A stretch of 43,833 nucleotides of DNA from Chitinophagales bacterium (GCA_020848255.1 JADLAJ010000089.1:1-43833), one strand, 5' to 3'; numbered from the stretch's first letter, positions 3,953 to 26,959 are shown. Notes: generated from the sequence alone by a model not told the origin. Numbers and translations: made by a program.

Positions 3953-4022
3953 TTCACAAAAATAAAAAAGGCCCGGGAAAACCGAACCTGTTTTTGTAGC
4001 GAGGACGGGAATTGAACCCGTG
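3952..4022. repeat. 71-bp direct repeat, copy 2
   Basis: Identical to 3615..3685. Its first base is the last base of the GIY-YIG start codon. Confidence 0.95.
3958..3989 (-). terminator. rho-independent terminator of the native tRNA-Met (copy 2)
   Basis: Same hairpin and T-run as copy 1, immediately 3' of the displaced tRNA 3' half. Confidence 0.5.
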
Positions 4023-4038
4023 ACCTCAGGGTTATGAA
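3997..4038 (-). pseudogene. displaced native 3' half of tRNA-Met (attL side)
   Basis: t agcgagg acggg aattgaa cccgt gacct caggg ttatgaa comprises discriminator, acceptor 3' strand, T-arm, variable loop, 3' anticodon stem and anticodon loop. Similarity to the intact tRNA stops at 4039. Confidence 0.85.
4021..4038. repeat. attL core (18 bp, tgacctcagggttatgaa)
   Basis: Identical 18-mer at 26910..26927 inside the intact tRNA. Confidence 0.9.
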
Positions 4039-4098
4039 AACTGATTTACAAATAGTTACATTAATAAAAAGATGGTTTTAGTGTGGTTTAAGCCGTTT

Positions 4099-4124
4099 TC
4101 CTCACTCTAATTCCTCACTCTAAT
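4099..4124. repeat. tandem 13-bp repeat tcctcactctaat x2 near the island left end
   Basis: Perfect tandem copies at 4099..4111 and 4112..4124. A 12/13 match (tcctcactctaa) lies at 26805..26816 and a partial cctcactc at 26793..26800, near the right end. Confidence 0.9.
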
Positions 4125-4532
4125 ACTATCTAACGGTACTTTATGTACCTAAACCGTTCTTTGTAATCCACGTTTTTGTTGTAAAACAAATTACGGTTAA
4201 TGTGACTAAATTCTGAAAATATGCCCCCCTTCCTGCTACATGATTTTCTATTTAAACCGTTGCTGTTACCGAACTCCTATATATGTACACTTTAAACCAC
4301 ATAATAGCACATCACCTGAAAGCCGAACTGGCGACTAAAAAATTTTTTAAAAATTTAGAGCGTATCATTTTGAACCATTGATATAAATCAATTAATAAAT
4401 TTTTTTTACTGAAAATGTGCCTATATGCTACACTTTTAGAATTTCCGTACTATTTATTGATTCAGATGTGGGACAATAAATCTTGTATGGGATTCCTGTA
4501 TCAAATAACAAATATTATAATATGTATGAAAA

Positions 4533-5171
4533 ATGAAAAAATTAGAAAACCTAACAGAGTTTATCAAACGAACCAATAAAAGCAAAAGTAAAATATACAG
4601 GTTCTACAAATTAAATCAAGATTTGTTTTCAGAAACGGTGCTTAAAAAAAAGAGATTATTTCCTATTGAACATGAGAGATATTTCAACTCCGAATTAATG
4701 TTTGATGAAAATAAGATACTCCGAACAGAAAATAAGTCAATGAGAAATCTAATTGATTGTTTGGTAGATAAAGATAGCCTACAATTCAGACTTTGGGAAC
4801 TTGAATGGAGTTTCTTCTTTACCGTAGCATATCAAGCTGATAGAAATAAAAAATCTTGTTATAGACAGATTAATGGTATGTATGAGCATCTATTATCAAA
4901 ATACGGTGATGAAACTGGAGTACGAATATTTTTTACTACCGAACCATTTGCCAATAAAGCAGGTTATCATAATCATTTTGTGATTCACATAGAAAAGAAA
5001 TCTTTACATCAGGAAATTGTAGAAGAAATAAAAAGCTATTTCAGCTACGACAGAGTTGATGTGAGTTTATATGACCGATATAAAGCTGCTTTATTCTATG
5101 CTTCAAAAGAAGGCTTAGTGAATGAAGACTGGGATTTATTTGGCAATAAATTGAGTAACGAAAACAATTAG
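4533..5171 (+). CDS. hypothetical protein with HUH/Rep-like motif arrangement
   Basis: 212 aa ORF carrying FFFTVAY, GYHNHFVIHI and FYASKEG in the order and spacing of rolling-circle Rep motifs I, II and III. The N-terminus is basic. This rests on motifs only. Confidence 0.4.
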   Translation: MKKLENLTEFIKRTNKSKSKIYRFYKLNQDLFSETVLKKKRLFPIEHERYFNSELMFDENKILRTENKSMRNLIDCLVDKDSLQFRLWELEWSFFFTVAYQADRNKKSCYRQINGMYEHLLSKYGDETGVRIFFTTEPFANKAGYHNHFVIHIEKKSLHQEIVEEIKSYFSYDRVDVSLYDRYKAALFYASKEGLVNEDWDLFGNKLSNENN

Positions 5172-5173
5172 TA

Positions 5174-5311
5174 ATGAGAATTAAAATCACCAAAAAACAG
5201 TTTAAGTTGCTGTTTGATAATCTTTATATACTTTCAGAAAAAGGATTAGAGATGAAAATGAGTGGCGCAACATTTCTTTATTTATTTGGCGACGGTAAAA
5301 TCGCCAAATAA
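5174..5311 (+). CDS. small hypothetical ORF (45 aa)
   Basis: An ATG lies 2 nt after the stop of the preceding gene (MRIKITKKQFKLLFDNLYILSEKGLEMKMSGATFLYLFGDGKIAK). No recognisable motif. Confidence 0.25.
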   Translation: MRIKITKKQFKLLFDNLYILSEKGLEMKMSGATFLYLFGDGKIAK

Positions 5312-5327
5312 ATAAGTTTAAAGGTAC

Positions 5328-5762
5328 TTAGTTTATGTTTTTCAAATCATAGCTATACTTACCATTATTAAACGTAATTAGCATATTATAATCTTGATTT
5401 TTTTGTAAATCCAAATCGAATGTGGTGATGTTAAAATTCGTTTTTATATTAGACAACGGTACGCCGAGTTGAATCTGTATCTTCTCATTTGTTATTGGGA
5501 TTGTCGTACTAAATGACTTCTTAAAATAAAAAGATGACAACGATTCTTTATTCAAATATAAATCCAGTTTAAAGTCAAATAAATATGAACGTCCTACCCA
5601 TGAAATAGTTAGTGTTCCTGTCTTGTTATTTATGGTGGCGACACTTATAGAATTATCTTCATTATTTAAGGTCTCATTTTTCAAGTTTTCATACTCCGAA
5701 CTTGTTATTACTCCATCATCAAATAATTGTTTGAGTTCTTTAATTTTTTGTAGCTTATCCAT
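5328..5762 (-). CDS. SHOCT-like domain protein (N-terminal SHOCT plus beta-rich C-terminal domain)
   Basis: DKLQKIKELKQLFDDGVITSSEYENLKNETL matches the SHOCT consensus as recalled. The start overlaps the upstream gene's stop (ATGGATAA). Confidence 0.6.
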   Translation of the reverse strand: MDKLQKIKELKQLFDDGVITSSEYENLKNETLNNEDNSISVATINNKTGTLTISWVGRSYLFDFKLDLYLNKESLSSFYFKKSFSTTIPITNEKIQIQLGVPLSNIKTNFNITTFDLDLQKNQDYNMLITFNNGKYSYDLKNIN

Positions 5763-6168
5763 ACATTATGATATTAAAAGTTAGAATAATGATTAATGCT
5801 GCTATATCTGCGCCGAAAAGCAACCTATATTTAGATTTAATTAGTGACATGTGTCTGAATGCAATAAATTGAATTAATAGTCTAAAAGCTATTTGAGCAA
5901 TGATTATTAAGAAGTAAAAGACAGATTGATTATTTAAAGTATTTGCTTCTTTAAAATGAAATGATAAACAATTATATAAGCCTCTTGTCAGTCCACATGA
6001 CCTGCATTGATGACCATAAATAATTTTATACTCACATGGCATATTTAAACCAAAGAATCTATTTATAATAACATATAGTATTACAAACGAAATGAGGTAC
6101 ATAATCATACTATTAAAAAGTAAGTATGCTTCATATTCCTGAATCGATTTTTGTTTTAGAATTTCCAT
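5755..6168 (-). CDS. DUF2752-like membrane protein
   Basis: A CEYKIIYGHQCRSCGLTRG motif (C..G..C..CG.TR) flanked by hydrophobic helices. The start is chosen at the internal MEILKQK, which overlaps the upstream gene by 13 nt. The tracked ORF extends to 6222. Confidence 0.6.
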   Translation of the reverse strand: MEILKQKSIQEYEAYLLFNSMIMYLISFVILYVIINRFFGLNMPCEYKIIYGHQCRSCGLTRGLYNCLSFHFKEANTLNNQSVFYFLIIIAQIAFRLLIQFIAFRHMSLIKSKYRLLFGADIAALIIILTFNIIMYG

Positions 6169-6794
6169 CCAGCATTGAATAAAACAATAGCAATAAAGAT
6201 TTCTATCAACGATATAGCACAAAGTATTTTATCACCTACTGTCGCATCCATCCTACTTAAAATGAAGAAGGAAATGAATACCGAAGCAAATCCAGCCGAA
6301 CCAGCACCTAAGTATATCATACATGGTGACACGTTGATAAAGTACAAAACCGCTCCACCACACAAAACGTTTATAATACCAGCAGCAGCATAATTAAACC
6401 CTTGTCTATCGGAATTCATCTTAGCGATTTCTTGTGTCGAAAAGACTTTATTGCAAATGTCTATTTCATCTTTTGTCATCTCCGCAGGTGCATGAGTTTG
6501 TTTCATTTGGATAAACGGTTTTATTAAATCAAGTTCTTTATTACTTATGTTATTGAGGTCAAAATATTCTATCGGCGGCGGATTAATTAGTTTTCCGTTA
6601 GCATCGTTGAAAGACTTCAAAAATATTCTATGACCTTCACCAGTTTTGTTATTAGATGTATTCTGATTTACATTTAGTGATGTATTATTATCACTTAGAA
6701 TTTCCTTTTTCAGGTTTTCAAGTTCTTCAATTGTTATTGCTCCTGACTTGTATAGGTTATTTAGCTCCGCTAACTTCTCAATTTTATTATTCAT
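6156..6794 (-). CDS. SHOCT-like domain membrane protein
   Basis: N-terminal NKIEKLAELNNLYKSGAITIEELENLKKEIL is SHOCT-like. The C-terminal ~70 aa are strongly hydrophobic, consistent with 2-3 TM helices. Confidence 0.6.
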   Translation of the reverse strand: MNNKIEKLAELNNLYKSGAITIEELENLKKEILSDNNTSLNVNQNTSNNKTGEGHRIFLKSFNDANGKLINPPPIEYFDLNNISNKELDLIKPFIQMKQTHAPAEMTKDEIDICNKVFSTQEIAKMNSDRQGFNYAAAGIINVLCGGAVLYFINVSPCMIYLGAGSAGFASVFISFFILSRMDATVGDKILCAISLIEIFIAIVLFNAGWKF

Positions 6795-6824
6795 AGTATT
6801 GATTTATATTTTTTTGGTGTAATT

Positions 6825-6832
6825 CAAAAATA
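6825..6832 (-). promoter_or_regulatory. candidate Bacteroidota -7 promoter box (TATTTTTG on minus strand)
   Basis: Matches the TAnnTTTG consensus about 30 nt upstream of the ATG at 6794, with a TTG further upstream. Pattern match only. Confidence 0.3.
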
Positions 6833-6893
6833 AGAAAAAATTTCAAACAAGGGGCGTACTCGCCACCATTAATAAATTATTTACTTCGCACTT

Positions 6894-7136
6894 TTGAGTG
6901 TGAAAAACGAGGAGTGTTTAGAAGCATTTGGAGAACATTTAAAACTGCTCCGAAAAAAATATAAATTCAGTCAACAAGTTTTGGCGAACAAAGCCGATAT
7001 TGATAAAAAGACAATTCAGAGAATAGAGTTTAACCAGCTTAATCCATCTTTAGATACTTTGTGTTCCATTGCAATCGGATTTGATATATCATTAAGCGAA
7101 CTGCTGAATTTCAAATACACGGTTAGGAAAGATTAA
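6894..7136 (+). CDS. XRE-family helix-turn-helix transcriptional regulator
   Basis: 80 aa ORF with the HTH_3-like FSQQVLANKADIDKKTIQRIEFNQLNPSLDTLCSIAIGFDISLSELL. TTG start. Divergent from the SHOCT operon. Confidence 0.8.
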   Translation: MSVKNEECLEAFGEHLKLLRKKYKFSQQVLANKADIDKKTIQRIEFNQLNPSLDTLCSIAIGFDISLSELLNFKYTVRKD

Positions 7137-7363
7137 TTTCCTATAATACCTACCTCACCAATTAACAACACCAAACCACCCATTTTTCTATAAAATGTTC
7201 ACTATTATAAGAAGTGTACATTATAAAATCACTCATTCTGTTGATTGTCAGTCAGTTGGATTGTTTTTAATAATTTTAAGCAATATTAATGTTCACTTTT
7301 ATACAAATAGTTGTATATATGAACATTATTGTTTATCTTTACATATCATTAAAAATAAACAAC

Positions 7364-7927
7364 ATGAGTGCATTAGGAACGATAACGACAAGCGACTACA
7401 TCCAGTTTGACAGAGCAACAGCCGTCGGCGAAAAACTATTAAAAGACGAAAAATTAAAAACATTAGGATTATACATAATTGTATCAATCAACAGCGGTTT
7501 AAGAATAAGTGATGTACTGGCATTAAAAGGAGAAAATCTAAAAGCCGACACAATTAAGTTGGTAGAAAAGAAAACTAACAAGCACCGAGAAATAAAAATC
7601 AATGATAATATTAAAAAAGCTATCCAAGTGTATGGAACACTAAATGATAGTTATTTATTCGTTAGTCAGAAAAACACGGTGTATTCTATTCAATCTGTAA
7701 ATAGATTACTAAAAAGCACTTTCAAGAAAGAAGCTAAGACTTTAAATATCTCAACTCACTCTATGCGTAAATCATTCGGTCGCAAAGTTTACGAAAGCTG
7801 TGGTGAAAGCGAGAAAGCTTTAAACTACCTGTCAGAATTATTCAATCATACTTCGTTATCTGTTACACGCCGATATTTAGGAATTAGACAAGAGGAATTA
7901 AATAATATCTATGATTGTATAGCTTAG
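7364..7927 (+). CDS. short tyrosine recombinase (catalytic domain only)
   Basis: Catalytic signature present: GLRISDVLALK (Arg), HSMRKSF (HxxR), NHTSLSVTRRYLG (His, Tyr). The ATG at 7364 is preferred over the tracked 7289 start, whose N-terminus is low-complexity. Confidence 0.75.
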   Translation: MSALGTITTSDYIQFDRATAVGEKLLKDEKLKTLGLYIIVSINSGLRISDVLALKGENLKADTIKLVEKKTNKHREIKINDNIKKAIQVYGTLNDSYLFVSQKNTVYSIQSVNRLLKSTFKKEAKTLNISTHSMRKSFGRKVYESCGESEKALNYLSELFNHTSLSVTRRYLGIRQEELNNIYDCIA

Positions 7928-7939
7928 TTTTAGATATAA

Positions 7940-10297
7940 TTAATAATTTACAGTTAAACCTGCGCCGAAACCCATGTCACTATCATAGTGAATTTTTGCA
8001 CCTAAGTGTTTATTAATGATGTATTTTAATCCTACCATATATTCAGCATCCGTATTAACCATAAAATCCATTCTTAAACGTTTGGTTAAAGGTATATCGG
8101 TTCTCATTAGTTGTATTCTTACATAACCATTGTGATATACTTCAGCCTGTAATTTAATTAACAACGGCATGGTATATTCCAAACCAACGGAAGCTAAAAT
8201 TCTATGGTCTTTTGAGTTCTTTTGCTGGAATAAATTCTTTTCTACTTCAGCCATTCCTAATTTTCGATAACGATAATCAAATCCGACAAACAGTTGTAGA
8301 AATTGCATTTTATCTACATACCTACCTATGTGTGTTTCGATTTCCCAACCATGCATTTTATGATAACCTAAACGCCACTCTGTTCCGATACTCCAACGTT
8401 TGTTTTGCAACATCATTTCACCATCATTACCATTACTTGCAAAATCATTCTCAAACATGAAATGAAATTTTCTATCATCGGCAAATAATTTTCGTTTTGC
8501 TAATTTCGGATTTGGAATTAATGGATTTGGTGCTTGATTTTCATATGTAAACACTCTACCCATTCCACTCATCATGTGATATAAAATATGACAATGAAAA
8601 AACCAATCGCCTTCAACATTAGCATTAAATTCTAAGGTGTCGGTTTCCATAGGCATGATGTCGATTATATTTTTTAGGGGTGCATATTCCCCTTGTCCGT
8701 TTAATACTCTAAAATCGTGACCATGTAAATGCATCGGATGTCGCATCATGGATGCATTATCTAATATCAATCTAATGTTTTCGCCTTTTTTAATTAATAT
8801 TTTATCAGATTCTGAAACTACTTTATTATTTAAACTCCACAGGTATCGATTCATATTGCCAGTCAATGTAAATTTTAATTCTTTAACTGGCGCATCAATT
8901 GGCAAAGTAGTTTTTACAGGTGATTTCAGCATGGCATAATTTAAGGTGACAATATCAGATAATGCATTACCATTATATCTATTTGCGTCATCACTTTCCA
9001 TATCTTGCATTGCGTTATCGCCATTTAGATTCATCTTTTTTGCTAATACTTTATCTTTTCTGTTTTTTGCATTACCAGTTATTTCAGGGTACATTACCAC
9101 ATTCATATCCATTTGATTCAAACTCATTTTCATGCCCATATCGTTTAATTTACCACTCATCTTCATCATGTCATTCATCATCTTCATTCCTTCAAAATAT
9201 TTTAGCTTTGGCAATGAATTATCTAACTGTTTAATTCCATTGCCAATAAATATTGATGTTGATTTTGTTCTGTCTTCAGGTGTAGCTAAGAACTCATAAG
9301 AAATACTATCATTAGGAATTGTTACTATAACATCATAGGTTTCAGAAACGGCAATAATAAGTCTATCAACTTCTACTGGTTCTACATCATTACCATCGTT
9401 TGCTACAACTGTAATTTTTCCACCTGCATACGTTAACCAAAAATAAGAAGATGCACCACCATTTGAGATTCGCAAACGCACCTTATCACCACCTTTAAAT
9501 TGTGATAACTGACTTTCATTTTTTCCATTGATTAAAAATTTATCATAATAAACATCACTTACATCCATTGCTAATTGACGTTTCCATTCGTTTTTTAATT
9601 TGGTTTTAAACTGACCTGCTTTGATGGCTTCTAAATAACTTTGTGTAGTACCTTTTTTTATTGCAAACCAATCAGAAGCATTATGTAACATGCGATGTAC
9701 ATTCTCAGGTTTATAATTTGTCCACTCACTTAGTACAATTGGAACAGTAGGCAAATCATCAATACCTTTTCTAAAAGTAGAATCATCTGTTCTTTTATTC
9801 ATGACAAAACTTCCATACATACCAATTTGCTCTTGCAAACCGCTATGGCTATGATACCAATGTGTACCATGCTGTATTATTGGAAAACGATAGATATGTG
9901 TAGTACCAGGTTTTATTGGCATTTGCGTAAGATTAGGAACTCCATCTTCTTTATTTGGTAAAAACAAACCGTGCCAATGCAATGAGGTTGATTCTTTCAA
10001 TTCATTATGTACATAAATTTCTGCCGTGTCGCCTTCTGTAAAAACAAGTGTAGGCATCGGTATTTGACCATTTACTGCAATTGCATGTTTGGGCTTACCT
10101 GTAAAATTCACAATAGTATCTCTTACATATAAATCGTAATGAACTAATTTTTGTGCAAATGAATTATAAGAAGTTGTTACTGTCACAAATAAAAGAACCG
10201 CTTTACAACATTCTTTTTCACGAATAAAAATTCCTTTAAAAATTCTTTTTAAAAGATTGAAAATCCATTTTAGTATTTTGATTATTTTCTCTTGCAT
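7940..10297 (-). CDS. multicopper oxidase fused to a C-terminal CopB-like outer-membrane domain
   Basis: All four MCO copper motifs are present (HWHG, HWYHSH, HPMHLHGH, HCHILYHMMSGM), with a signal-like N-terminus and a Met-rich segment at 9089..9187. The C-terminal ~180 aa (about 7943..8480) resemble copper resistance protein B and end in an aromatic residue (LTVNY). Confidence 0.8.
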   Translation of the reverse strand: MQEKIIKILKWIFNLLKRIFKGIFIREKECCKAVLLFVTVTTSYNSFAQKLVHYDLYVRDTIVNFTGKPKHAIAVNGQIPMPTLVFTEGDTAEIYVHNELKESTSLHWHGLFLPNKEDGVPNLTQMPIKPGTTHIYRFPIIQHGTHWYHSHSGLQEQIGMYGSFVMNKRTDDSTFRKGIDDLPTVPIVLSEWTNYKPENVHRMLHNASDWFAIKKGTTQSYLEAIKAGQFKTKLKNEWKRQLAMDVSDVYYDKFLINGKNESQLSQFKGGDKVRLRISNGGASSYFWLTYAGGKITVVANDGNDVEPVEVDRLIIAVSETYDVIVTIPNDSISYEFLATPEDRTKSTSIFIGNGIKQLDNSLPKLKYFEGMKMMNDMMKMSGKLNDMGMKMSLNQMDMNVVMYPEITGNAKNRKDKVLAKKMNLNGDNAMQDMESDDANRYNGNALSDIVTLNYAMLKSPVKTTLPIDAPVKELKFTLTGNMNRYLWSLNNKVVSESDKILIKKGENIRLILDNASMMRHPMHLHGHDFRVLNGQGEYAPLKNIIDIMPMETDTLEFNANVEGDWFFHCHILYHMMSGMGRVFTYENQAPNPLIPNPKLAKRKLFADDRKFHFMFENDFASNGNDGEMMLQNKRWSIGTEWRLGYHKMHGWEIETHIGRYVDKMQFLQLFVGFDYRYRKLGMAEVEKNLFQQKNSKDHRILASVGLEYTMPLLIKLQAEVYHNGYVRIQLMRTDIPLTKRLRMDFMVNTDAEYMVGLKYIINKHLGAKIHYDSDMGFGAGLTVNY

Positions 10298-10301
10298 ACT
10301 A

Positions 10302-12842
10302 TTACAGTTTTATACTTCTTAATCTTAATGAATTTACTATTACTGAAACCGAACTGAAACTCATAGCAGCAGCAGCAATCATAGGTGATAATAATATTCC
10401 GAATACAGGATATAAAACACCTGCTGCAACAGGAATACCTAATACATTATAGAAGAATGCGAAAAATAAATTTTGTTTGATATTTCTCATTACTGAATGA
10501 CTTAAATTTTTAGCTTTTACAATTCCTTGTAAGTCGCCTTTAAGTAAAGTTATTTCAGAACTTTCGATAGCAACATCCGTTCCTGTACCCATTGCAATGC
10601 CAATATCTGCTTGTGCTAATGCAGGTGCATCATTTATACCATCACCAGCCATTGCAACAATTTTGCCTTCTGCTTGTAATCGTTTAATTTCATTCAATTT
10701 ATCTTGAGGTAAACATTCCGCTTTAAAGTTGGTTAGATGCAATTCATCTGCTACCGATTTTGCTGTATTATGATTATCACCAGTCAACATGATAACTTCA
10801 ACGCCTTGTTCCATTAATATTTTTATAGCATTCTTACTCGTTGTTTTAATAGCATCTGTAATTGTTACATATCCTTGTATAATTCCATCAACAGAAATAT
10901 AAGAAACTGTCTTACCCAATATCTGTTCATTTGTAATTTGCTTTTCAATATCAGATGAAATAACGGCTTGTGCTTGTTCCATTAGCTTTTTATTACCTAA
11001 AGCTATTTTCTTATCTGAAATTGTACCTATAACACCTTTACCTGCAACGGCTTCAAAATCCTTAACATCAACAACAGCTATGGCTTTTAATTTTGCGTAT
11101 TTTACTACAGCTTCTGCTAACGGATGTTCACTATATTGATTTAATGATGCGATGTATTTTAGTAGTTCATTTTCATCGAATGTATCAAATGCTACTATTT
11201 TTTCAACGGATGGTTTTCCTTCTGTTATCGTTCCTGTTTTATCCGTAATCAATACATTAATTTTATTCATGTTTTCTAATGCTTCTGCATTTTTTATGAG
11301 TACACCATTTTGCGCACCTTTACCGACACCAACCATTATTGACATTGGCGTTGCTAATCCTAATGCACACGGACAAGCTATAATTAAAACAGCGATAGCA
11401 TTAACAAAAGCAAAAACATAAGCCGATTCAGTACCAAATATTGCCCAAACAACAAATGTAATTATTGAGATTACCAAAACAATAGGAACAAAGTATTTAG
11501 AAATTCTATCGGCTAATTTTTGAATAGGTGCTTTAGAGCGACTGGCATTGTTTACCATTTGAATAATTTGTGCAAGTAATGTTTCCGCTCCGATTTTTTC
11601 TGCCATCATTACAAATGATTTTGTACCGTTAATCGTTCCTGTACTTACTTTATCATCTTTCTTCTTATCAACTGGAATTGGTTCACCTGTAATCATTGAT
11701 TCATCAACGTTACTGCTTCCATCTGTTATAATTCCATCAACAGGAATTTTTTCGCCAGGTTTTACACGCAATAAATCACCTTTTTTAATATCATCAATAG
11801 CAATGATTTTATCTTTACCATCAATCACTAATGTAGCTTCTGTCGGTGCTAATTTTAATAGTTCTTTAATTGCTCCATTGGTTTGACTATGCGCTCTTGC
11901 TTCTAATAATTGCCCTAATAAAACTAATGTAAGAATAACCGTTACGGCTTCAAAATATACAAAGACTGTTCCGTTATGACTTTTAAATTGGTCAGGAAAA
12001 ACATTAGGGAAAAGCATAGCAATTACACTAAAAATAAATGCAGCACCTGCGCCAATACCTATTAATGTAAACATATTCAAATTCATGGTTCTAATAGAAG
12101 TCCACGCCCTTTGAAAGAACATCCAACATGCATAAAAAATAACAGGTATGGACAAACCAAATTGTAACCAGTTCCACGCTATTTGTGGCATTAAAGATGT
12201 TAGGTGTAAATTTGGTATCATTTCAAGCATTGCAATTAAAAATACTGGAACTGTAAAAGCGGTTGAGATTATCATTTTCTTTGATAATTCTTTATATGTG
12301 TTATCTTCTTCTCTAACTGCTGTTACTATAGGAATTAAATCCATACCACAAATAGGACAAGCACCTGCAACATCTCTAATAATTTCAGGATGCATCGGAC
12401 ATGTGTATTGAGTTTTTTGTATAGTAAGTTCAGGAACTTTTTCTAAATTCATTCCGCATACAGGACAATTACCTGCTTTGTCGTACATTTTATCTCCTTC
12501 ACAATGCATCGGACAATAATATTTCCCACTACTGTTTTTAGCAAACGGTTTTACTTCTGAATCTTGTTTGTTATGTGTTGAACAACACGATTTTGTTTCA
12601 ATGCTACTTTCTTTATTGTCAGCTATATTCTGACTATCGGACATTTGTATTGTATAATTACCAGCAGCAGTTAAAGCCGTTTGCAGTTGTTCAATGGGAA
12701 TATGCTTTTCCATAGTAATAGTTGCAATTGGCGGTTCTAATGTAACAACAGCAGAAATGCCAACAATATCATTCAATGTTTTTTCAACTTTTGAACGGCA
12801 TCCATTACAAGTCATTCCTGTGATTATATATGTGTGTGTCAT
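10302..12842 (-). CDS. copA: copper-translocating P1B-1-type ATPase
   Basis: Contains an HMA domain (GMTCNGC), two YxCPMH...CPxCGM modules, CPC in TM6, DKTGT, YN in TM7 (FFYNVLGIP), MSFSS in TM8 and GDGINDAP. Confidence 0.9.
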
Positions 12843-12847
12843 TGTAT

Positions 12848-13312: not shown

Positions 13313-13317
13313 AAAAG

Positions 13318-14004: not shown

Positions 14005-14020
14005 TTTTTTTGATTTTAGA

Positions 14021-14947: not shown

Positions 14948-14974
14948 TTTAGAAATTTTTAATTTACAATATGA

Positions 14975-15487: not shown

Positions 15488-15580
15488 TTTAAAGAATTTA
15501 ATAGTTGAATAAATAATAGAATTAAAAGTTTCATTTATCGAAACTTCATTGATTTCCTGAGTGGAAATTATAATCAACTA

Positions 15581-16015: not shown

Positions 16016-16089
16016 CTAAGATTACAAAGTTAGACCTTAATTTAATCATTTGCAACACCAAATAGTTTATATACTGTTAAAATCATGTT

Positions 16090-18072: not shown

Positions 18073-18076
18073 ATAA

Positions 18077-18430: not shown

Positions 18431-18456
18431 TGATTTATTTTTAATAGTGATGAATA

Positions 18457-18825: not shown

Positions 18826-18836
18826 AGCATTTAATT

Positions 18837-20138
18837 TTAGTGTTCGTGTGCTTCACCTTGATTAGTTAATTTAGCATTGACAAAGAATGCACCTTTGGTT
18901 ACAATCTTTGCATCTTTAGGTATTTCATTTACTGTGGTTATTGCAGTATAACCAATATTAGAAATACCTTTTACAACTTCGATTCTCTCAAAATTAATAG
19001 TTGGTTGTTTTTCTTTTTCTTCATCGTGTTTTTCATTTGCTGAATGCTTGTGTCCTTCTTCTTCATCGTGATGTTCATCAGGTTTTTTATCAGTAATAAT
19101 AAAAATAAAACTTCTACCTTCTGCATCAACAATAGCTTCATTTGGAACGGCTGCTGTTGTAATATTATTTAAACTCACAATAGCAGTAATATTCATACCA
19201 TCAATTAAACCTGTTTTATTACCTTGTACAGTACAATGTATAGGAATAGTTTTGCTATCATTTTCAAAAGTAGTACCTATACTATAAATTTTAGCATCGT
19301 ATTCGTTAACAGGATTATTTGTAAGTGTAAAGTGAATTACCTGACCAACTTTAAGTAACGGCAAATCTTTTTCAAAAATATTTAAGTCTAAATGCAATTG
19401 ACTATTATCTACAATTTCTGCAACTGGTGATGATACATCTACATAGCTTCCTATTTTAGAAAACACATTACTGATTGTACCACTAATAGGACTTTTAACT
19501 ACTAATGCAGAACGTAAATTATTATTGCTTACACTACTCGGATTAATTCCCATGAGTTGTATTTGTTCTTGCAGAGATGCTTTGCGTGTGCGCAATGTTT
19601 TGAGTTCTGCATCTGCACTCTGATAATTTTTTAAAGCACCTGCGTTGCCATCACTTAATTCTTTTTGTCGTGCCAACTCTTGTTCTGCATAAATAATTTT
19701 ACTTGTCACGGTTAAGTATTCTTCTTGTAATTGTATAAACTGTGGATTAGTGATAGTGGCAATTACCTGACCACTTTTTACATTGCTTCCGACTTGAACA
19801 TTAATTGTTTTAATAACACCACCGTACAAAGATGTTGCATTTGCTTTGTTGTTATTTGGCACACGCAATGCACCGTTAGCTTTAAGTGTAGCTGTTAATT
19901 GTTTTTGTTCAATGCTGCCAAACTGAATACCTACCGTTTTGATTTGTTCATCAGTAAGCGATGCAATAGTAGCTTCTGTGCTTTCTTCTTCAACTTCACC
20001 TGTTGTTTTTTCTTCTTTAGCTTCTTGTGTTGTGCCGTGTTTATGTCCGTCACTTTCATTGTGCGAACAAGCAGTAAGTAGCACTACAAATAGTAGCATT
20101 AAATACTTATTGTTTAAAGATTTTATATTGATTGTCAT
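18837..20138 (-). CDS. efflux RND periplasmic adaptor subunit (CzcB/CusB-like), His-rich
   Basis: Lipobox LLTACS, a coiled-coil hairpin region and barrel-sandwich motifs. His/Glu-rich stretches (HNESDGHKHG, DEHHDEEEGHKHSANEKHDEE, terminal GEAHEH). Immediately downstream of the RND gene. Confidence 0.85.
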   Translation of the reverse strand: MTINIKSLNNKYLMLLFVVLLTACSHNESDGHKHGTTQEAKEEKTTGEVEEESTEATIASLTDEQIKTVGIQFGSIEQKQLTATLKANGALRVPNNNKANATSLYGGVIKTINVQVGSNVKSGQVIATITNPQFIQLQEEYLTVTSKIIYAEQELARQKELSDGNAGALKNYQSADAELKTLRTRKASLQEQIQLMGINPSSVSNNNLRSALVVKSPISGTISNVFSKIGSYVDVSSPVAEIVDNSQLHLDLNIFEKDLPLLKVGQVIHFTLTNNPVNEYDAKIYSIGTTFENDSKTIPIHCTVQGNKTGLIDGMNITAIVSLNNITTAAVPNEAIVDAEGRSFIFIITDKKPDEHHDEEEGHKHSANEKHDEEKEKQPTINFERIEVVKGISNIGYTAITTVNEIPKDAKIVTKGAFFVNAKLTNQGEAHEH

Positions 20139-20144
20139 CTTAGT

Positions 20145-23100
20145 TTATTTACTGATTAGATAATTGATATTAACTACTGTTTGATTAATTTGATGAATAG
20201 ATTGCAGATACTTTAATTCTACATCCGTTTCATTTTGCAATGCCAGTATATATTCAATATAACTTGCATCACCTGTTTTATAACCTAACTTTGCTGCCTT
20301 TATTATTTCTGCTGCTGTCGGCAATGCTTGTTGTTTATAATAATTATATTGCAACATATACTGGTTGTATTGCTGAAACGCATTTACCAACTGAATTTCT
20401 ATTTGATGTTGTTCGTTTTGTGCGGTAGCTTGTAATGCTTGTTTTTGATAATCTAAAGATTTAATTTTTGCCTTAGTTGCGCCAAATGTAAGTGGTATGC
20501 CAATGCCAATAGAACCAACATGAAAACGGTTTCCAGCGTTAAAATATTTTTCCTGATTATTAATCGTTTGAAAGCCGATTAAAGATTGATTATTGTAACC
20601 AAAAGTAAAATCAGGTAAACCAATTGCCTTCTCTACTTTTTTATTTTGTTCGGCAACTGTTGCTTCTTGTAATATCTTTTTAATAATCGGATTTTGTGCA
20701 AGCAAGTTAGTATCTACAATTGTAACAGTTTGCAATGGTAGATACGGTTGTACAGTAGCAATAGAAAAATCATCACTTGTATTCATCCACATTTTTAGCA
20801 GATTATACGTTGCAGTAATATTGTTTTCGCTTTCTTGCAACAATAATTTTATTTCACTTCTTTTTGCTTCGGCTGTTGTTTTTTCTAATTGCTTTGTTTC
20901 ACCAGTTATAAATCTTAAAGCAGATGCGTATACAAAATCAACATACAAGCTGTCTAAATGCAGTAGTTTGTTTTTATTGTTTTCAAAAAATACTAACTGA
21001 TAATAATACGTTTGTACTTGCGCTTTAATTTCGTTTTCAGTTATCTGCTTAGAAAGTTCTTTACTAATAACTTCTGCTTTAACCGCTTCTCTCTTTGCTG
21101 AAAATAAAGAAGGAAACGGAATCGTTTGTGAAATTTCAAAAGCATTATCAAATTTCTTACTGTTGTATTGACCTAACTGTACATTGAAATTTGTTTTAGG
21201 TATTTCTTTTGCAGATTTACTTAAACTTTTAGTTGCTAATACTGCTAATTCATCTGCCTTTAGTTTAGAACTATTCTTTAGTGCAACACTTGTGATTTCT
21301 TCTAAACTTAATTGATTGGTTTGTGCATTAGCAAAATGTGTAGATAATAATAGTATTACTAAGATGCTTGTTATTGATTTCATTGGCTTTTTGTTTAATG
21401 AAATTTTAGAATTGAAAATGATGTATAACAATGGTAATACAAACAAGGTTAAGAAAGTAGCAGTTATTAAACCACCAATTACAACTGTTGCTAATGGTTT
21501 CTGAACTTCTGCACCAGCACTACCACTTAATGCCATTGGTAAAAATCCTAATGAAGCTACGGTTGCTGTCATTAAAACTGGTCGTAAGCGAATTTTTGTA
21601 CCTTCAATAACACGGCTAACAACGTCATTCCAGCCATCTTTTTCTAACTGGTTAAATGTGCCAATCAAAACAATTCCGTTTAAAACCGCTACGCCAAACA
21701 ATGCGATAAAGCCAATACCTGCTGAAATGCTAAAAGGCATACCACGAATTAATAAAGCAAAAACACCACCGATAGCACTCATTGGAATAGCAGTAAAAAT
21801 TAAGGTTGCTTGTTTCAAAGAATTAAACGTGAAGTATAAGAGCATAAAGATTAACAATAAAGAAATTGGTACTGCTATCATTAAGCGTTTAGATGCTTTT
21901 TGAAGATTTTCAAACGTACCACCATAAGTGAAATAATAACCTGACGGCAATTTAATTTCAGCAGTAAGTTTGTGCTGAATCTCCTCCACAACACTTTGAA
22001 CATCTCTTTCATCTACATTAAAACCGACGACTACTCTGCGCTTACCTGCTTCACGGCTAATTTGTGCTGCACCTAATTTATAAGATACGTTTGCAACTTG
22101 TGATAACGGTATTTGATTGCCAAATGATGTAGGTATAAATAAATTATTTACATCGTCAATGGTACTTCTATATGCACTATCTAAACGAACTACTAAATCA
22201 AATTTCCGTTCATTCTCATATACAACTCCAGTAGATTTTCCTGCAAATGCAGTACTGATAATATCGTTTACATCTTCAATATTTAAACCGTAGTTTGCTA
22301 ATCTCATTCTGTCATACTCTACATTGATTTGAGGTAAGCCATCTACACGTTCAATCATTGGTGTTGTTGCTCCATCTACCTTTTGGATAATCTTGCCTAC
22401 TTTGTTTGCATACGCCAAAAGTGTGTCCATATTTTCACCGAAAACTTTAACTGCAACATCTTGTCGAATACCTGTCATTAACTCATTAAATCGCATTTGT
22501 ATCGGCTGATTTTTCTCAAAGAAAACGCCAGGAATAGCTTCTAATCGCTCGATGATTTCATCAGCTAATTCATCATAACTTTTATCTGATTTCCATTCTT
22601 TTTGAGGTTTAAGAATTATCATCATATCTGTTGCTTCAGGTGGCATTGGGTCGGTTGGTACTTCTGCTGCTCCAGTTTTGCCGACAACCATTTTTACCTC
22701 ATCAAATTGTTTTATAATTCGAGATGCTTGCATGGATGTTTCTAAACTTTGGCTAAGAGATGTGCCTTGTGGTAAAATACAATGAAAAGCAAAATCACCT
22801 TCCTGAAGTGTCGGAATAAATTCGCCACCCATTCTGCTAAATATAAATAATGAGGTAGCAAAAAGTATAACTGTAATTGTTATCAGCACGTACTTTAATC
22901 TAATAGCTTTATTTAATAATGGTTGATAGATTTTGTAAAAGAATGCCATCATTTTATCCGATATAGTATCATGTGGTTTTAATTGTTTAGGCAATATTAA
23001 AGCACACATCATAGGTATATAAGTTAACGACAATATCAATGCACCAAAAATTGCAAAGCTAACTGTCATTGCCATTGGCTTGAACATTTTACCTTCAATA

Positions 23101-24503
23101 CCTATTAAAGACAAAATAGGTATATACACTATCAAGATTATTATTTCACCAAAAGCAGCACTACTTCTGATTTTTGAAGCCGACTGAAATACTTCATCAT
23201 CCATTTCTGATTGAGATAGTTTCTGTACGGATTGCCTTAACCCTAAATGGTGTAAGGTGGCTTCTACAATAATTACAGCTCCATCTACAATTAAACCAAA
23301 ATCAATAGCACCTAAACTCATTAAGTTGGCACTAACACCGAACACATTCATTAATGCTAATGCAAATAACATTGATAATGGAATAGCAGAGGCAACAATT
23401 AAACCTGCTCTTAGATTTCCGAGAAACAACACTAAAACAAATATGACTATTAAAGCACCTTCAATAAGATTTTTCTCTACTGTTGATATAGCACGTTTTA
23501 CTAAATCTGTTCTATCTAAATACGCTTCAATTATTATGTCATCAGGTAATGATTTTTGTATGGTTATCATTTTCTCCTTGATGCGTTTTACAACCTCATT
23601 GCTGTTTTCGCCTTTTAGCATCATTACCACACCACCAACTGCATCTACTTCACCGTTATATGTCATAGCACCGTACCGAACAGCATTGCCAAATTTTACT
23701 TCTGCTACATCTTTAATAAAAATTGGTACGCTATTGGCATTACTTTTAACAACAATATTTTTTACGTCTTCTAATGAAGTAACCAAACCAACACCACGAA
23801 TAAAATATGCATTAGGTTTTTTGTCGATGTATGCACCGCCAGTATTTTGATTGTTTTTTTCTAAGGCATTAAAAATATCAGGTATAGTTATACCCATTGC
23901 TTTTAGTCGATTAGGATTGATGGCAACTTCATATTGCTTTAGTTTGCCACCAAAACTATTGACTTCTGCTACTCCTTTTGTACCATTTACTTGACGTGCT
24001 ACAATCCAATCTTGCATGGTGCGCAAATCCATTGCAGTATAGTTATTTTCACTACCTTTTTTGGGATGTAATACATATTGATATACTTCGCCAAGTCCTG
24101 TACTAACTGGTGCTAATTCAGGAATGCCAACGCCTTTTGGTATATCTTCTTCTGCTTCTTTTAGTTTCTCATTAATGAGTTGCCGAGCAAAGTATATATC
24201 TACTTTCTCATCAAAGACAACTGTTATAACAGACAAACCAAACCTTGATATACTTCTTGTTTCTTCAATATCAGGTAGGTTTACAATACTTTGTTCAATA
24301 GGAAACGTAACTAATTGTTCTACTTCCTGACCTGCCAAAGTAGGACAAATAGTAATTATTTGTACCTGATTATTAGTTATATCAGGTACGGCATCAATAG
24401 GTAATTTTGTGGCACTCCACAAACCCCAAATAATAAGTAATAAAGTCATTAAGCCAATAATGAATTTATTTTTTATACTAAAATGAATGATTTTGTCTAA
24501 CAT
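20145..24503 (-). CDS. CzcA-family heavy-metal RND pump fused in frame to a TolC-like outer membrane factor
   Basis: 1452 aa with no stop. Residues 1 to about 1035 are RND, with AIDFGLIVDGAVIIVE in TM4. Residues 1041..1452 start with the signal-peptide-like MKSITSILVILLLSTHFANAQ (Met codon at 21381..21383) and continue as a TolC/CzcC-like domain. Confidence 0.85.
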   Translation of the reverse strand: MLDKIIHFSIKNKFIIGLMTLLLIIWGLWSATKLPIDAVPDITNNQVQIITICPTLAGQEVEQLVTFPIEQSIVNLPDIEETRSISRFGLSVITVVFDEKVDIYFARQLINEKLKEAEEDIPKGVGIPELAPVSTGLGEVYQYVLHPKKGSENNYTAMDLRTMQDWIVARQVNGTKGVAEVNSFGGKLKQYEVAINPNRLKAMGITIPDIFNALEKNNQNTGGAYIDKKPNAYFIRGVGLVTSLEDVKNIVVKSNANSVPIFIKDVAEVKFGNAVRYGAMTYNGEVDAVGGVVMMLKGENSNEVVKRIKEKMITIQKSLPDDIIIEAYLDRTDLVKRAISTVEKNLIEGALIVIFVLVLFLGNLRAGLIVASAIPLSMLFALALMNVFGVSANLMSLGAIDFGLIVDGAVIIVEATLHHLGLRQSVQKLSQSEMDDEVFQSASKIRSSAAFGEIIILIVYIPILSLIGIEGKMFKPMAMTVSFAIFGALILSLTYIPMMCALILPKQLKPHDTISDKMMAFFYKIYQPLLNKAIRLKYVLITITVILFATSLFIFSRMGGEFIPTLQEGDFAFHCILPQGTSLSQSLETSMQASRIIKQFDEVKMVVGKTGAAEVPTDPMPPEATDMMIILKPQKEWKSDKSYDELADEIIERLEAIPGVFFEKNQPIQMRFNELMTGIRQDVAVKVFGENMDTLLAYANKVGKIIQKVDGATTPMIERVDGLPQINVEYDRMRLANYGLNIEDVNDIISTAFAGKSTGVVYENERKFDLVVRLDSAYRSTIDDVNNLFIPTSFGNQIPLSQVANVSYKLGAAQISREAGKRRVVVGFNVDERDVQSVVEEIQHKLTAEIKLPSGYYFTYGGTFENLQKASKRLMIAVPISLLLIFMLLYFTFNSLKQATLIFTAIPMSAIGGVFALLIRGMPFSISAGIGFIALFGVAVLNGIVLIGTFNQLEKDGWNDVVSRVIEGTKIRLRPVLMTATVASLGFLPMALSGSAGAEVQKPLATVVIGGLITATFLTLFVLPLLYIIFNSKISLNKKPMKSITSILVILLLSTHFANAQTNQLSLEEITSVALKNSSKLKADELAVLATKSLSKSAKEIPKTNFNVQLGQYNSKKFDNAFEISQTIPFPSLFSAKREAVKAEVISKELSKQITENEIKAQVQTYYYQLVFFENNKNKLLHLDSLYVDFVYASALRFITGETKQLEKTTAEAKRSEIKLLLQESENNITATYNLLKMWMNTSDDFSIATVQPYLPLQTVTIVDTNLLAQNPIIKKILQEATVAEQNKKVEKAIGLPDFTFGYNNQSLIGFQTINNQEKYFNAGNRFHVGSIGIGIPLTFGATKAKIKSLDYQKQALQATAQNEQHQIEIQLVNAFQQYNQYMLQYNYYKQQALPTAAEIIKAAKLGYKTGDASYIEYILALQNETDVELKYLQSIHQINQTVVNINYLISK

Positions 24504-24592
24504 AGTTAAAATTTAATAATCGTGAATAATGCCGTATCGAATGAATCAATAAGCATAAAAAGCATTACAGCGTAATGCAACAGAATAAACGA

Positions 24593-24904
24593 TTAAGAAA
24601 TTTTAGGTGGCTGCCAAATACTGGCACTAAATTGAGAGCTAAATGTTTGATTGTATATTGCTATACTTTTATTAAAGATTTCAGGCTTTAAAATAGTTTG
24701 TGCTACTGGATAATTAATTTTACTTGTAACAGGCTGACCGCAACAAGCACAAATACAAAACGGCGTACAATTTTCGTTTTCGTGCTTGTGGCTGTTATGA
24801 GATTGTTCAGATTTATTTCCCTCATCACATTCAACACTATCGCTACACGGCGCAAGTGAAAGCACCAAAATGTATATGCTAAATATGATTGTGAAAAATT
24901 TCAT
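24593..24904 (-). CDS. DUF6660-like small Cys/His-rich protein
   Basis: MKFFTIIFSIYILVLSLAPCSD...HKHENENCTPFCICACC is the pattern of the family that typically precedes czcA-like genes in Bacteroidota (recalled). ATG at 24904 preferred over the tracked TTG at 24922. Confidence 0.55.
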   Translation of the reverse strand: MKFFTIIFSIYILVLSLAPCSDSVECDEGNKSEQSHNSHKHENENCTPFCICACCGQPVTSKINYPVAQTILKPEIFNKSIAIYNQTFSSQFSASIWQPPKIS

Positions 24905-25161
24905 TGAGCCAAATATAGACAAAAATAAGTAAAGTCAATTCTAATATGTGTTAACGGTGGTTTACAATTTATTAATATTGTGTGCCGAAATTAGACTTGA
25001 TACATTGAATACAATGGAGTAGTTTTGGATAAATAAAGAAACTCCAGGAATTAAACCCAAACCTATTGTCCTGGTTCTTAACACTTTGTATCTTTAATAC
25101 ATGTTAAGAAGGTTAAATGCTCTTATGTGTAAAATAACAACGAATCAAATTCATTCACCAA

Positions 25162-25524
25162 ATGTCAATCGGTGCTGAATCTCCACTAATTAGTATTAGT
25201 GAAATTGCTGCAATCTTAAAGAAGAAAAATGATGCAGCTATCAAATGGCTAACAGAACATAAAGTTTCAATTCACAAGTTCGGTAAAAGCAGCCATGTTT
25301 ATAAGATTGATTGGTTAATTCTATTAGGTAAAATCTATGCTAAAGAATTAAGAAAAACCTATCCGAATACATGGTCAGATAAATACCGAATGATTGAAAA
25401 AAATGAAATCATATCAGGTATGGTAATACATGAATTGGCTTCTGAAAAAGCATGCTTGCCAACAACGGTGGTTAAACCGATAAATAACAATGATAAAACA
25501 TTTTTAAAAAGTATAACAAGATGA
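25162..25524 (+). CDS. small DNA-binding (excisionase-like) protein
   Basis: 120 aa ORF whose stop overlaps the integrase start (ATGA). The N-terminal ISISEIAAILKKKNDAAIKWLTEHKV resembles an HTH. The function is inferred from position. Confidence 0.4.
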   Translation: MSIGAESPLISISEIAAILKKKNDAAIKWLTEHKVSIHKFGKSSHVYKIDWLILLGKIYAKELRKTYPNTWSDKYRMIEKNEIISGMVIHELASEKACLPTTVVKPINNNDKTFLKSITR

Positions 25525-26816
25525 AAAAACTAAAATTACCAAAGAAGCCTTATACTGGCATGAAAGTATATTGCAATATCTGCAAGAAAGATAACGCAGG
25601 TTGTTCACATTATGACGAACAGAATTATAGAATCAGAATTCACGTCCCTAATACAAAGAATAGAGTTAAAGTAAAAATCTTTGATACTGACGATTACAAT
25701 GATGCCGTCGTACAAGCAATTGAATTTAAAAAACAACTTAATGCCACGAATTATACTCGCATAAAGGTCACAACGGACGGCAATGATTATTCATTAGCTG
25801 GTGCGCTATTAAAGTATAAAAATTACCTTGAAGGCAACCATGAATTAGAGCAAAATAAGAAGTCGGTCTCTAAAGGTCATATAAATGAATCTCTAAGATT
25901 CTGTAAGTTTTTTGCTGGAGTAATTAGTGAAAGAATAAACATACACAATATAAGAGTGATGGATATAGATAAATATGATGTATCTGATTTTTATAAGGCA
26001 TTAAAGAAAAAGAAGTATGAAGGGAAAACATTCAATAAGTGTTTGGCAGCATTGAAAAGGTTTTTTAAATACCTAATAGATGTAGAAGAGATTGATATGA
26101 AAAACCCGTTTGCAGAATATGAATCTAAATCTGTTGCTAAGAAGAATATTATCTCCATCTCAAAAGAAGAATTTTTAAGTATCATTAATGCTGTTGATAC
26201 AGCAAGTCCGTATCAACAATTAGGTGGCAAGGGTGAGGTTAAAAACATGTATAAAGACTATCTAAAGATTGGATTTTGGCTGTGTCTATATACTGGTGGC
26301 AGACGAGAAGAAGTCGTCAACTTGAAATGGAATGATATGGTAATGACAATAAGCGGAAACCTATCGTTTGAAGTCCATAATCTAAAAGTCAATAGAAGGA
26401 ATAATAACGATGATGCTAAGAAATACTTTCCAATATATCCTGATTTTGCCAATCTATTGTATGAATTAGGTTATCCTGATAAAATCAATCGCAACGGATA
26501 TATTCTACATCCTGAAAGAGTGGAATCGGCGCAAACTATAATGGATGCCTTGTCAAAAGCATTTACACATTATAGAATTGCAGCAGGTATTAAAAGAGAT
26601 ATTAGTTTGAGTACACTACGAAAAACATTCATAAGTTGGTTAAATGAAGCTGTCGGCGTAGAAACTGGCTTGTTAACTTCACACACTACCGAAGATGTAT
26701 TAAAAAATCATTATATAGATTCTCAAATTGCATCTGCGATTGATAAAGCAACACATAATGTTAGAATTTTTGGTAAAGATGATTTAGATAAACCTCACTC
26801 CGCATCCTCACTCTAA
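25521..26816 (+). CDS. site-specific tyrosine integrase
   Basis: 431 aa ORF with GGRREEVVNLKWND (Arg), LRKTFISWL and HTTEDVLKNHY (His, Tyr). It lies 70 nt from the tRNA 3' end. Confidence 0.85.
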   Translation: MKKLKLPKKPYTGMKVYCNICKKDNAGCSHYDEQNYRIRIHVPNTKNRVKVKIFDTDDYNDAVVQAIEFKKQLNATNYTRIKVTTDGNDYSLAGALLKYKNYLEGNHELEQNKKSVSKGHINESLRFCKFFAGVISERINIHNIRVMDIDKYDVSDFYKALKKKKYEGKTFNKCLAALKRFFKYLIDVEEIDMKNPFAEYESKSVAKKNIISISKEEFLSIINAVDTASPYQQLGGKGEVKNMYKDYLKIGFWLCLYTGGRREEVVNLKWNDMVMTISGNLSFEVHNLKVNRRNNNDDAKKYFPIYPDFANLLYELGYPDKINRNGYILHPERVESAQTIMDALSKAFTHYRIAAGIKRDISLSTLRKTFISWLNEAVGVETGLLTSHTTEDVLKNHYIDSQIASAIDKATHNVRIFGKDDLDKPHSASSL

Positions 26817-26885
26817 AAATTAGCATTTCGTGCAAAAAAAACACTAAAAAGAAAAACCCTCTGATAATCAGAGGGTTTCTTAAAG

Positions 26886-26959
26886 TAGCGAGAAGGAGAA
26901 TTGAACTCCTGACCTCAGGGTTATGAATCCTGCGCTCTAACCATCTGAGCTACCTCGCC
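26886..26959 (-). tRNA. tRNA-Met (anticodon CAU; an Ile2/lysidine identity cannot be excluded)
   Basis: Manual cloverleaf: GGCGAGG-TA-GCTC-AGATGGTTA-GAGC-G-CAGGA-TTCATAA-CCCTG-AGGTC-AGGAG-TTCAATT-CTCCT-TCTCGCT-A. CCA is not encoded. Confidence 0.9.
26910..26927. repeat. attR core (18 bp, tgacctcagggttatgaa)
   Basis: Identical to 4021..4038. Confidence 0.9.

Follow-up and report, generated by a model that had tools for sequence, protein, structure and literature searches.

How did the 3′ half of a single tRNA gene come to stand at both ends of a block of 23 kb? This question is raised by a 43,833-nucleotide stretch of DNA from a Chitinophagales bacterium (GCA_020848255.1, JADLAJ010000089.1:1-43833; here called the window), in which a gene for elongator tRNA-Met and a partial copy of it enclose a region rich in A and T. 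The source assembly, designated G000 in our comparisons, is a metagenome-assembled genome (MAG) of 381 contigs and 3.13 Mb. We consider it highly probable (roughly 93%) that positions 4039..26927, 22,889 bp counting one copy of the repeat core, are an integrative genomic island that entered the elongator tRNA-Met gene by tyrosine-integrase recombination with the attachment site of the element (attP). The junctions of this island are defined by the following features (comparison genomes carry G numbers, comparison loci L numbers):

26886..26959, minus strand: hybrid tRNA-Met(CAT) of the elongator type, composed of a host 5′ part (26959..26928), the shared core, and a T-arm and acceptor 3′ strand brought by the island
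26910..26927: copy of the 18-bp core on the integrase side, spanning tRNA positions 32-49 from the anticodon loop to the first base of the T-stem
4021..4038: distal copy of the 18-bp core
26885..26909, minus strand: island-supplied T-arm (AGGAG/CTCCT) and acceptor 3′ strand (TCTCGCT)
3996..4020, minus strand: T-arm (ACGGG/CCCGT) and acceptor 3′ strand (CCTCGCT) of the host, displaced; the intact tRNA-Met genes of G012, G003 and G007 have the same 3′ part
26852..26880, minus strand: intrinsic terminator of the hybrid tRNA, brought by the island, with a 13-pair stem and then a T run; also present in G005
3959..3989, minus strand: host terminator of the tRNA-Met before insertion, with its stem at 3989..3969 and then a T run

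The only tRNA of the window is this tRNA-Met(CAT), placed on the minus strand at 26885..26959 by ARAGORN and at 26886..26959 by Rfam. The assembly holds four tRNAs with a CAT anticodon, and this one alone is of the elongator type. A sequence-only reading of the window had reported an identical 18-mer in the tRNA and in a 3′ half about 22.9 kb away. This 18-mer, TGACCTCAGGGTTATGAA, has exactly two occurrences in the window (4021-4038 and 26910-26927), where shuffled sequences lead one to expect none, and exactly two in the whole 3.13-Mb assembly, even with one mismatch allowed; a dispersal over many unrelated loci, which would speak against integration, is not seen. By the repeat finder the 18-mer is placed within a 48-nt direct repeat whose two copies are 85% identical and 22,889 bp apart, and the distal partial tRNA copy extends over 3996/3997..4038. 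On the tRNA strand the shared core reads TTCATAACCCTGAGGTCA, covering the anticodon loop and the variable loop up to the first T-stem base. After it, the distal copy continues with CGGGTTCAATTCCCGT CCTCGCT AC, and the copy within the tRNA with GGAGTTCAATTCTCCT TCTCGCT AC.

The two 3′ halves differ at five positions, in the T-stem and the acceptor strand, just as the sequence-only reading had described. Four of the differences form two compensated T-stem pairs (pair 50-64, C-G in the host half and G-C in the island half; pair 52-62, G-C and A-T, respectively), and the fifth, C66>U in the island half, turns G7-C66 into the G7-U66 wobble which that reading had also pointed out. All five changes keep the cloverleaf. 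Since nothing more than two compensated pairs and a G-U wobble is involved, the hybrid is still recognised as a tRNA, with 64.1 bits in Rfam compared with 70 bits for the uninterrupted gene of G003 (threshold 29 bits). Upstream of the gene, the host promoter region (TTTGCACCTC...AATTAT) is common to relatives, and the terminator claimed at 3958..3989 is indeed found as a stem with a T run. As a separate observation, two features of this elongator tRNA-Met, a mismatch (A31-C39) at the foot of the anticodon stem and the pair G1-U72, are kept in 18 of the 18 genus sequences inspected.

Which of the two halves belongs to the host was addressed by gathering the clpS-aat locus from 19 congeners and by inspecting 18 tRNA-Met sequences of the genus. 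The host attachment site (attB), when rebuilt by joining 26959..26928 to 4038..3996, is base-identical to the uninterrupted tRNA-Met of G012, G003 and G007, and an AGGAG/CTCCT T-stem occurs in none of the 18 sequences (0/18). For these two reasons the distal half is that of the host, and the half now in the gene that of the island. Empty sites exist as well: in G022 and G012 the order is tRNA-Met, terminator, clpS and aat, with nothing between them, and G004 has the same order plus a decayed GIY-YIG remnant and a tRNA copy plugged by a palindrome. The state of the locus in G004 is the state of the window prior to arrival of the island. The site in the relatives equals the attB predicted from the two junctions. 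These loci bear out what had been proposed from the window alone, namely that the element brought its own replacement 3′ half, that joining 26928..26959 to 3997..4038 restores an empty attB (G012, G003 and G007 for the gene; G022, G012 and G004 for the empty locus), and that related genomes, here G022 and G012, should hold an uninterrupted tRNA-Met followed by the terminator. The claim that the native 3′ half was displaced to the far junction stands insofar as this half matches the tRNA-Met of congeners; it had to be refined in that the half belonged to the working copy of an older GIY-YIG cassette (see below).

Across the congeners, the orientation of the tRNA-Met gene, together with its promoter and terminator, varies; its neighbours are clpS on one side and, on the other, a minus-strand gene for an Ala-rich lipoprotein (27118..27396 in the window). 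It is co-directional with clpS in G000, G004, G005, G012, G022 and L035, and divergent in most others.

Composition and distribution of the block both fit the horizontal origin of a tRNA-integrated island. Its GC content is 32.1% against a genome mean of 37.5% (standard deviation 2.05%, 5-kb windows), its windows are in the lowest 2.65% of the genome, and the profile along the window runs at 0.30-0.34 inside and 0.38-0.40 outside the island, in agreement with the visibly AT-rich interior noted beforehand. The distribution is patchy. The integrase was detected in 2 of the 31 genus genomes searched and, in a sample of 399 genomes of the order, in 3, the last of them with only 31% identity and a position beside tRNA-Asn; a contig-level scan with the integrase returned the G005 record only. 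G005, the second carrier (a Chitinophagales MAG, JAXLTY010000002.1, in a genome of 3 contigs), has the whole island at the same locus. Compared with the window, its left flank is 67-69% identical, its island 85-96% and its right flank 73-77%, the change falling at the two junctions, and its island-supplied half has a further, fully paired T-stem, GGGGG/CCCCC.

Metagenomes were searched by an exact-pattern scan for the distal junction, and two contigs were obtained. Ga0116157_10032343 (L034) contains 3.35 kb of the distal end of the island at 99.6% identity, and Ga0075163_10034671 (L035) contains 4.7 kb at 99.87%. Both are integrated copies with a host-type T-arm, joined to other host flanks: the flank of L034 is 98.8% identical to the locus of G003, where the tRNA-Met is intact, which gives an occupied and an empty version of one site, and the flank of L035 is just 79% identical to that of the window. 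As the island is found in the genome of the window, in G005, and next to the flanks of L034 and L035, at least four host backgrounds carry it, and near-identical island DNA is present in three of them.

The genes and sites to which the recombination may be ascribed lie close to the two junctions:

25521..26816, plus strand: tyrosine integrase, 431 aa (PHROG 1, E 1.4e-26; partial XerD/XerC matches)
25162..25524, plus strand: orf120, 120 aa, overlapping the start of the integrase gene; conserved partner
26793..26816, plus strand: pair of CCTCACT repeats with 13-bp spacing that runs into the last codons of the integrase; candidate arm-type sites
4100..4123, plus strand: tandem pair of CCTCACTCTAA repeats within the island, 62-85 bp from the distal junction; retained in L034 and L035, and likewise candidates for arm-type sites

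The integrase had been named in advance, and the PHROG match agrees with that assignment. The last base of its stop codon, 26816, is 69 bp away from the 3′ end of the tRNA; the region combines a bounding direct repeat derived from a tRNA, one complete tRNA, and an integrase at the tRNA-proximal end. In 15 aligned family members the residues R262, K289, R367, W373 and Y398 are invariant and in canonical order (assigned by motif order, not structure), and the product of 25521-26816 is probably a divergent tyrosine recombinase. Its relatives form a populated family of Bacteroidota proteins of about 420 aa and roughly 50% identity; PDB gave no sequence match. Three class-level relatives (50-53% identity), which come from three other families, all adjoin tRNA-Met(CAT). 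One of them, in G504, has a second copy of the same 17-bp core 18.1 kb away on the same strand, with a host-type half at the far end; the element of G504 shares the architecture of the island and differs in contents.

Homologues of orf120 (30-39% identity) lie directly upstream of the integrase in all three distant loci (L031, L032 and L033). The protein has no family match in Pfam, NCBIfam or PHROG searches, and possibly acts as a directionality or DNA-binding factor. The pair of CCTCACT motifs with 13-bp spacing at the integrase 3′ end recurs in G005, L032 and L031, and these repeats are candidates for arm-type integrase binding sites. The last eight integrase codons (PHSASSL and stop; 26793-26816) are encoded by the two repeats, and this C-terminal extension is absent from most homologs. 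At the other end of the protein (residues 1-30; 25521-25620) a cluster of C18, C21, C28 and H30 is invariant in 15 homologs, which may constitute a zinc-binding arm-site domain.

These elements suggest the following course of events. Strand exchange between attP and tRNA-Met took place inside the 18-bp block of identity TTCATAACCCTGAGGTCA. To the left of the core the end of the island reads CAGTT and the host CAGGA, and to the right the T-stems differ; because of these differences the crossover must, as far as the junctions tell, have fallen within tRNA positions 32-49, and the exact cleavage positions would lie in the same interval. At the integrase-proximal junction the island supplied a new T-arm, acceptor 3′ strand and its own terminator, leaving a hybrid gene that presumably stays functional and is still read from the host promoter; the T-arm, acceptor strand and terminator of the host were displaced to the far junction. 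The recombination module may be formed by the integrase (25521-26816), orf120 (25162-25524) and the CCTCACT repeats on both sides of the core.

Directly outside the distal junction lies an older layer, a third partial tRNA copy with an adjoining GIY-YIG gene, which the sequence-only reading had left out of its account of the integration:

3716..3952, minus strand: frameshifted GIY-YIG gene (Pfam GIY-YIG, E 2.9e-12 over the first 60 codons; C-terminus in another frame), outside the island
3615..3706, minus strand: broken tRNA-Met copy, starting from position 27, with a second copy of the terminator; below the Rfam threshold

In the broken copy (3615-3706) most of the 18-bp core has given way to the palindrome CCGCCGCGGCGG. 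This copy duplicates the T-arm, acceptor strand and terminator, with 99% identity to 3952-4025 over 74 nt, the stem of the second terminator being located at 3652..3632. Positions 3615-3952 show the layout of a cassette, that is, a small GIY-YIG gene directly 3′ of a working tRNA, followed by a palindrome-interrupted partial copy of the same tRNA. The same layout is seen at tRNA-Lys on contig C373 of the genome of the window (L039:1380-1900), at tRNA-Arg in G010 (L048:1400-2850, G010:C6), with four identical 300-bp tandem units, and at tRNA-Met in G004, G005, G010 and L035. The palindrome is CCGCCGCGGCGG for Met and TCCCGATAGCTATCGGGA for Lys; for Arg it is a 20-nt hairpin inside the T-loop. 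We had also considered 3615-3706 as the scar of an older island with its own integrase; this candidate was dropped, palindrome-plugged copies adjoining GIY-YIG genes at tRNA-Lys and tRNA-Arg too.

The island thus entered the working tRNA copy of an older GIY-YIG/palindrome cassette. With most of its core replaced by the palindrome, the spare copy cannot act as another attB. The cassette leaves the reconstruction of the insertion unaffected, since L034 has the same junction in a host locus free of it.

Related cassettes show further variation. In G010:C1:167466-170240 (L054-L061) there are eight GIY-YIG matches with an exact period of 366 bp, and ARAGORN found no tRNA in the end loci L054 and L061. 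In G005 (L026:12019-12133, G005:C2:912019-912133) a tRNA-Met 5′ half (GGCGAGG...) is fused to a palindrome-plugged stub, and shortly downstream follows a complete tRNA-Met whose acceptor stem differs (GGCGGGA...); the island uses the complete gene, and the cassette seems to have replaced the whole working tRNA in this genome. At L035:4700-5330 a seemingly intact GIY-YIG gene is flanked on either side by a palindrome-plugged tRNA-Met copy. In the window such a copy is present on a single side; it looks as though the first had been lost by deletion between the repeated T-arm and terminator.

Within the island, the distal end holds a gene that may bear on mobility:

4533..5171, plus strand: orf212, 212 aa, with an N-terminal helical domain and a C-terminal HUH Rep-like domain; candidate rolling-circle initiator or relaxase

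The protein has no match in Pfam, NCBIfam or PHROG. Its AlphaFold model (pLDDT 77.6) consists of a helical N-domain and a beta-alpha-beta-beta-alpha-beta core. The top structural match of the core is the SIRV1 ORF119 Rep (Z 9.0, rmsd 2.7, 103/116 residues), followed by the Rep nuclease domains of parvovirus, Vientovirus and pMV158 (Z 5.8-6.9); Foldseek against PDB gave generic ferredoxin-like matches only (E > 0.001). The family invariants F95, T97, H146-N-H148, Y189 and K192 follow the HUH motif order (H-x-H, Y-x-x-K), and a protein atlas returned unnamed Bacteroidota clusters together with a lead (0.78) towards rolling-circle Rep proteins. The modelled fold and the motif order make a moderate case for orf212 as a Rep protein or relaxase, and it may drive replication or mobilisation after excision. 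A homolog lies near the integrase in G528, and none was found in G504 or G666; for this reason orf212 is not a universal backbone gene.

Several points weigh against the interpretation as an integrated and mobile island. The source MAG has a completeness of 87%. The metagenome scan for the distal junction yielded no circular form or attP junction, both matches being integrated. The integrase reaches 25.2 bits against Pfam Phage_integrase (PF00589), below the cut-off of 27.1, and the family does not conserve the His of HxxR, the position three residues ahead of R367 being S/N/R/K. In L031 the tRNA-Met is co-directional with a stop-interrupted integrase, so that the geometry of integrase and tRNA is not universal in the family. 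A canonical relaxase, an oriT or a conjugation gene was not found in the island, whose 21 open reading frames (ORFs) include no MobP-type or mating-pore gene, and the assignment of orf212 to the HUH fold draws on the match at Z 9.0 and on motif order only.

Other explanations of the locus have to be weighed against integration. If the 23 kb were ancestral to the genus and the relatives had deleted the block between the tRNA-derived repeats, the apparent empty sites would be deletion products; direct repeats could mediate such deletions, and G005 does carry the block at the same locus. The identity values speak a different language, since the block shared by G000 and G005 is 85-96% identical and both flanks are 67-77% identical, a step that already points to a conflict between the phylogeny of the island genes and the species tree. 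Copies of 99.6-99.9% identity in two further host backgrounds, a GC content within the lowest ~3% of genome windows, an integrase in 2 of 31 genus genomes, and an integrase-side tRNA half unlike any genus tRNA-Met inspected all argue in the same direction, and we hold an ancestral block to be very improbable. The sequence-only reading had itself named the same 23 kb in relatives, with no empty variant and with a GC/codon profile like that of the flanks, as an outcome contrary to integration; this combination did not occur. Equally hard to credit is an origin of the duplicated tRNA 3′ half (3996-4038) from the GIY-YIG cassette, the 23 kb having come by another route. Such a cassette with a duplicated tRNA 3′ part does directly adjoin the junction, and cassettes of this type duplicate tRNA parts at other tRNAs of these genomes. 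The distal copy, however, is free of the palindrome, and its start coincides with the core that it has in common with the junction on the integrase side; L034 has the same distal junction, and its G003-like host locus is without a GIY-YIG gene for 650 nt downstream of the tRNA; the unrelated 18.1-kb element of G504 has the same core repeat.

The kind of element and the quality of the assembly also deserve consideration. Integration at a tRNA beside a tyrosine integrase is common to prophages and self-transmissible conjugative elements, and PHROG 1 is a phage-derived integrase family. Pfam was searched with all 21 ORFs of the island and PHROG with four, the latter returning integrases alone; none of the 21 matched capsid, tail, terminase, type IV secretion or coupling-protein families, Pfam gave no virion, packaging or lysis family across them, and no type IV secretion or coupling-protein gene was found in 4039-26927. 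With, in addition, no tblastn match of the integrase among 50,697 phage records, and a match to plasmid records limited to a P-type ATPase segment, a prophage or conjugative element in place of a plain or mobilisable island appears very unlikely. Least probable of all is a mis-assembly that joined an unrelated low-GC contig to the tRNA locus. A MAG of 381 contigs might invite this suspicion, but one contig holds both junctions, the same two junctions are present in the 3-contig genome G005, and the distal junction is present in two independent metagenome contigs. Integration of the island by its tyrosine integrase remains the reading that we prefer.

The larger part of the island is cargo:

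7940..24922, minus strand: metal-resistance cargo (Pfam and NCBIfam)
5328..7927: SHOCT/DUF2752/SHOCT genes, an XRE-type HTH gene and a short second tyrosine recombinase (212 aa); present in G005, and up to 7311 in L034

The cargo comprises a multicopper oxidase, two heavy-metal P-type ATPases, HMA, HMBD and DUF3347 proteins, a CusB-like adaptor, an RND pump fused to an outer-membrane factor, DUF6660 and small Cys-rich proteins, and by these families would represent a resistance set of the copper/silver and zinc/cadmium type. The fused pump is a single ORF of 1452 aa (20145-24503), with a complete RND pump (ACR_tran, 1-1030) and an OEP domain (to residue 1450). The sole match to plasmid records is the segment 16093-17949 of the gene for a 668-aa P-type ATPase (16090-18096); its counterpart, at 77.5% identity, is the heavy-metal ATPase gene carried by the Ornithobacterium rhinotracheale plasmids NC_011414.1 and NZ_CP094847.1. 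The second recombinase consists of a catalytic domain only (PHROG 216, E 9e-36); its gene and the XRE HTH gene (together 6894-7927) are both conserved in G005, and the island stretch of L034, which ends at 7311, covers the HTH gene and just the first bases of the short recombinase gene.

The locus offers a clean and fully delimited example of integration into a tRNA in Chitinophagales, a poorly studied group; the loci compared represent the site both occupied and empty, together with two variants of the island and four host backgrounds. A 23-kb package of copper/zinc-type resistance passes between species at more than 99.6% identity, and these near-identical copies in other species appear to show that the island is spreading now. 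The compact module of integrase, orf120, 18-bp core and arm repeats is a possible tool for site-specific integration in Bacteroidota that share this conserved tRNA-Met. The mechanism is ordinary and adds nothing new on integrases; the event is documented unusually completely. Literature searches turned up no publication that deals with tRNA-Met islands of this family of integrases, nor any that deals with the GIY-YIG cassettes. Only tentatively, and with more doubt than confidence, we may think of an undescribed family of Bacteroidota elements specific for tRNA-Met, characterised by the Cys/His integrase, orf120 and often an HUH Rep-like protein, which would replicate by rolling circle or be nicked after excision, would now move metal cargo between Chitinophagales species, and would be a rival of the GIY-YIG cassette for the tRNA. 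Since the palindrome of the cassette destroys the integrase core in the spare copy, two selfish elements would compete for the same tRNA gene.

As to known systems, integration of tyrosine integrases into tRNA genes, including a sublocation in the anticodon loop, was reportedly set out by Williams in 2002. The island resembles integration at this sublocation in that it replaces the tRNA 3′ part downstream of a crossover in the anticodon-loop region, in that the integrase adjoins the regenerated tRNA, and in that the host 3′ part forms a direct repeat at the far end. There is no difference in principle; the integrase here comes from a Bacteroidota family with sparse annotation, in which an N-terminal CxxC...CxH cluster is invariant. 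The older layer at 3615-3952, in turn, is like tRNA-linked mini GIY-YIG/palindrome cassettes, with a small GIY-YIG gene, the working tRNA on one side and a broken copy plugged by a GC-rich palindrome on the other; this likeness covers the older layer and not the island, and the GIY-YIG gene here is frameshifted.

Within the phylum, NBU1 has a gene for a MobP relaxase and a tyrosine integrase that targets tRNA-Leu at its 3′ end (PMC5704250). The island shares with NBU1 and other Bacteroidota integrative mobilisable elements a single tyrosine integrase, site specificity for a tRNA 3′ part, and the lack of mating-pore genes of its own. It differs from NBU1 in targeting tRNA-Met, in having a Rep-like HUH protein and no MobP-type gene, in being about twice as large, and in its metal-resistance cargo. 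The 10K genomic island of Riemerella anatipestifer, with a 53-bp site at Arg-tRNA and an IntN1-like integrase, has been shown experimentally to integrate and excise (PMC6764341). It is from the same phylum and likewise has a tyrosine integrase beside a tRNA gene and direct repeats at both ends; the island of the window has an 18-bp core within tRNA-Met and is known from sequence alone. Compared with NBU1 and the Riemerella 10K island, it differs in target, integrase lineage, cargo and the Rep-like gene, and not in principle.

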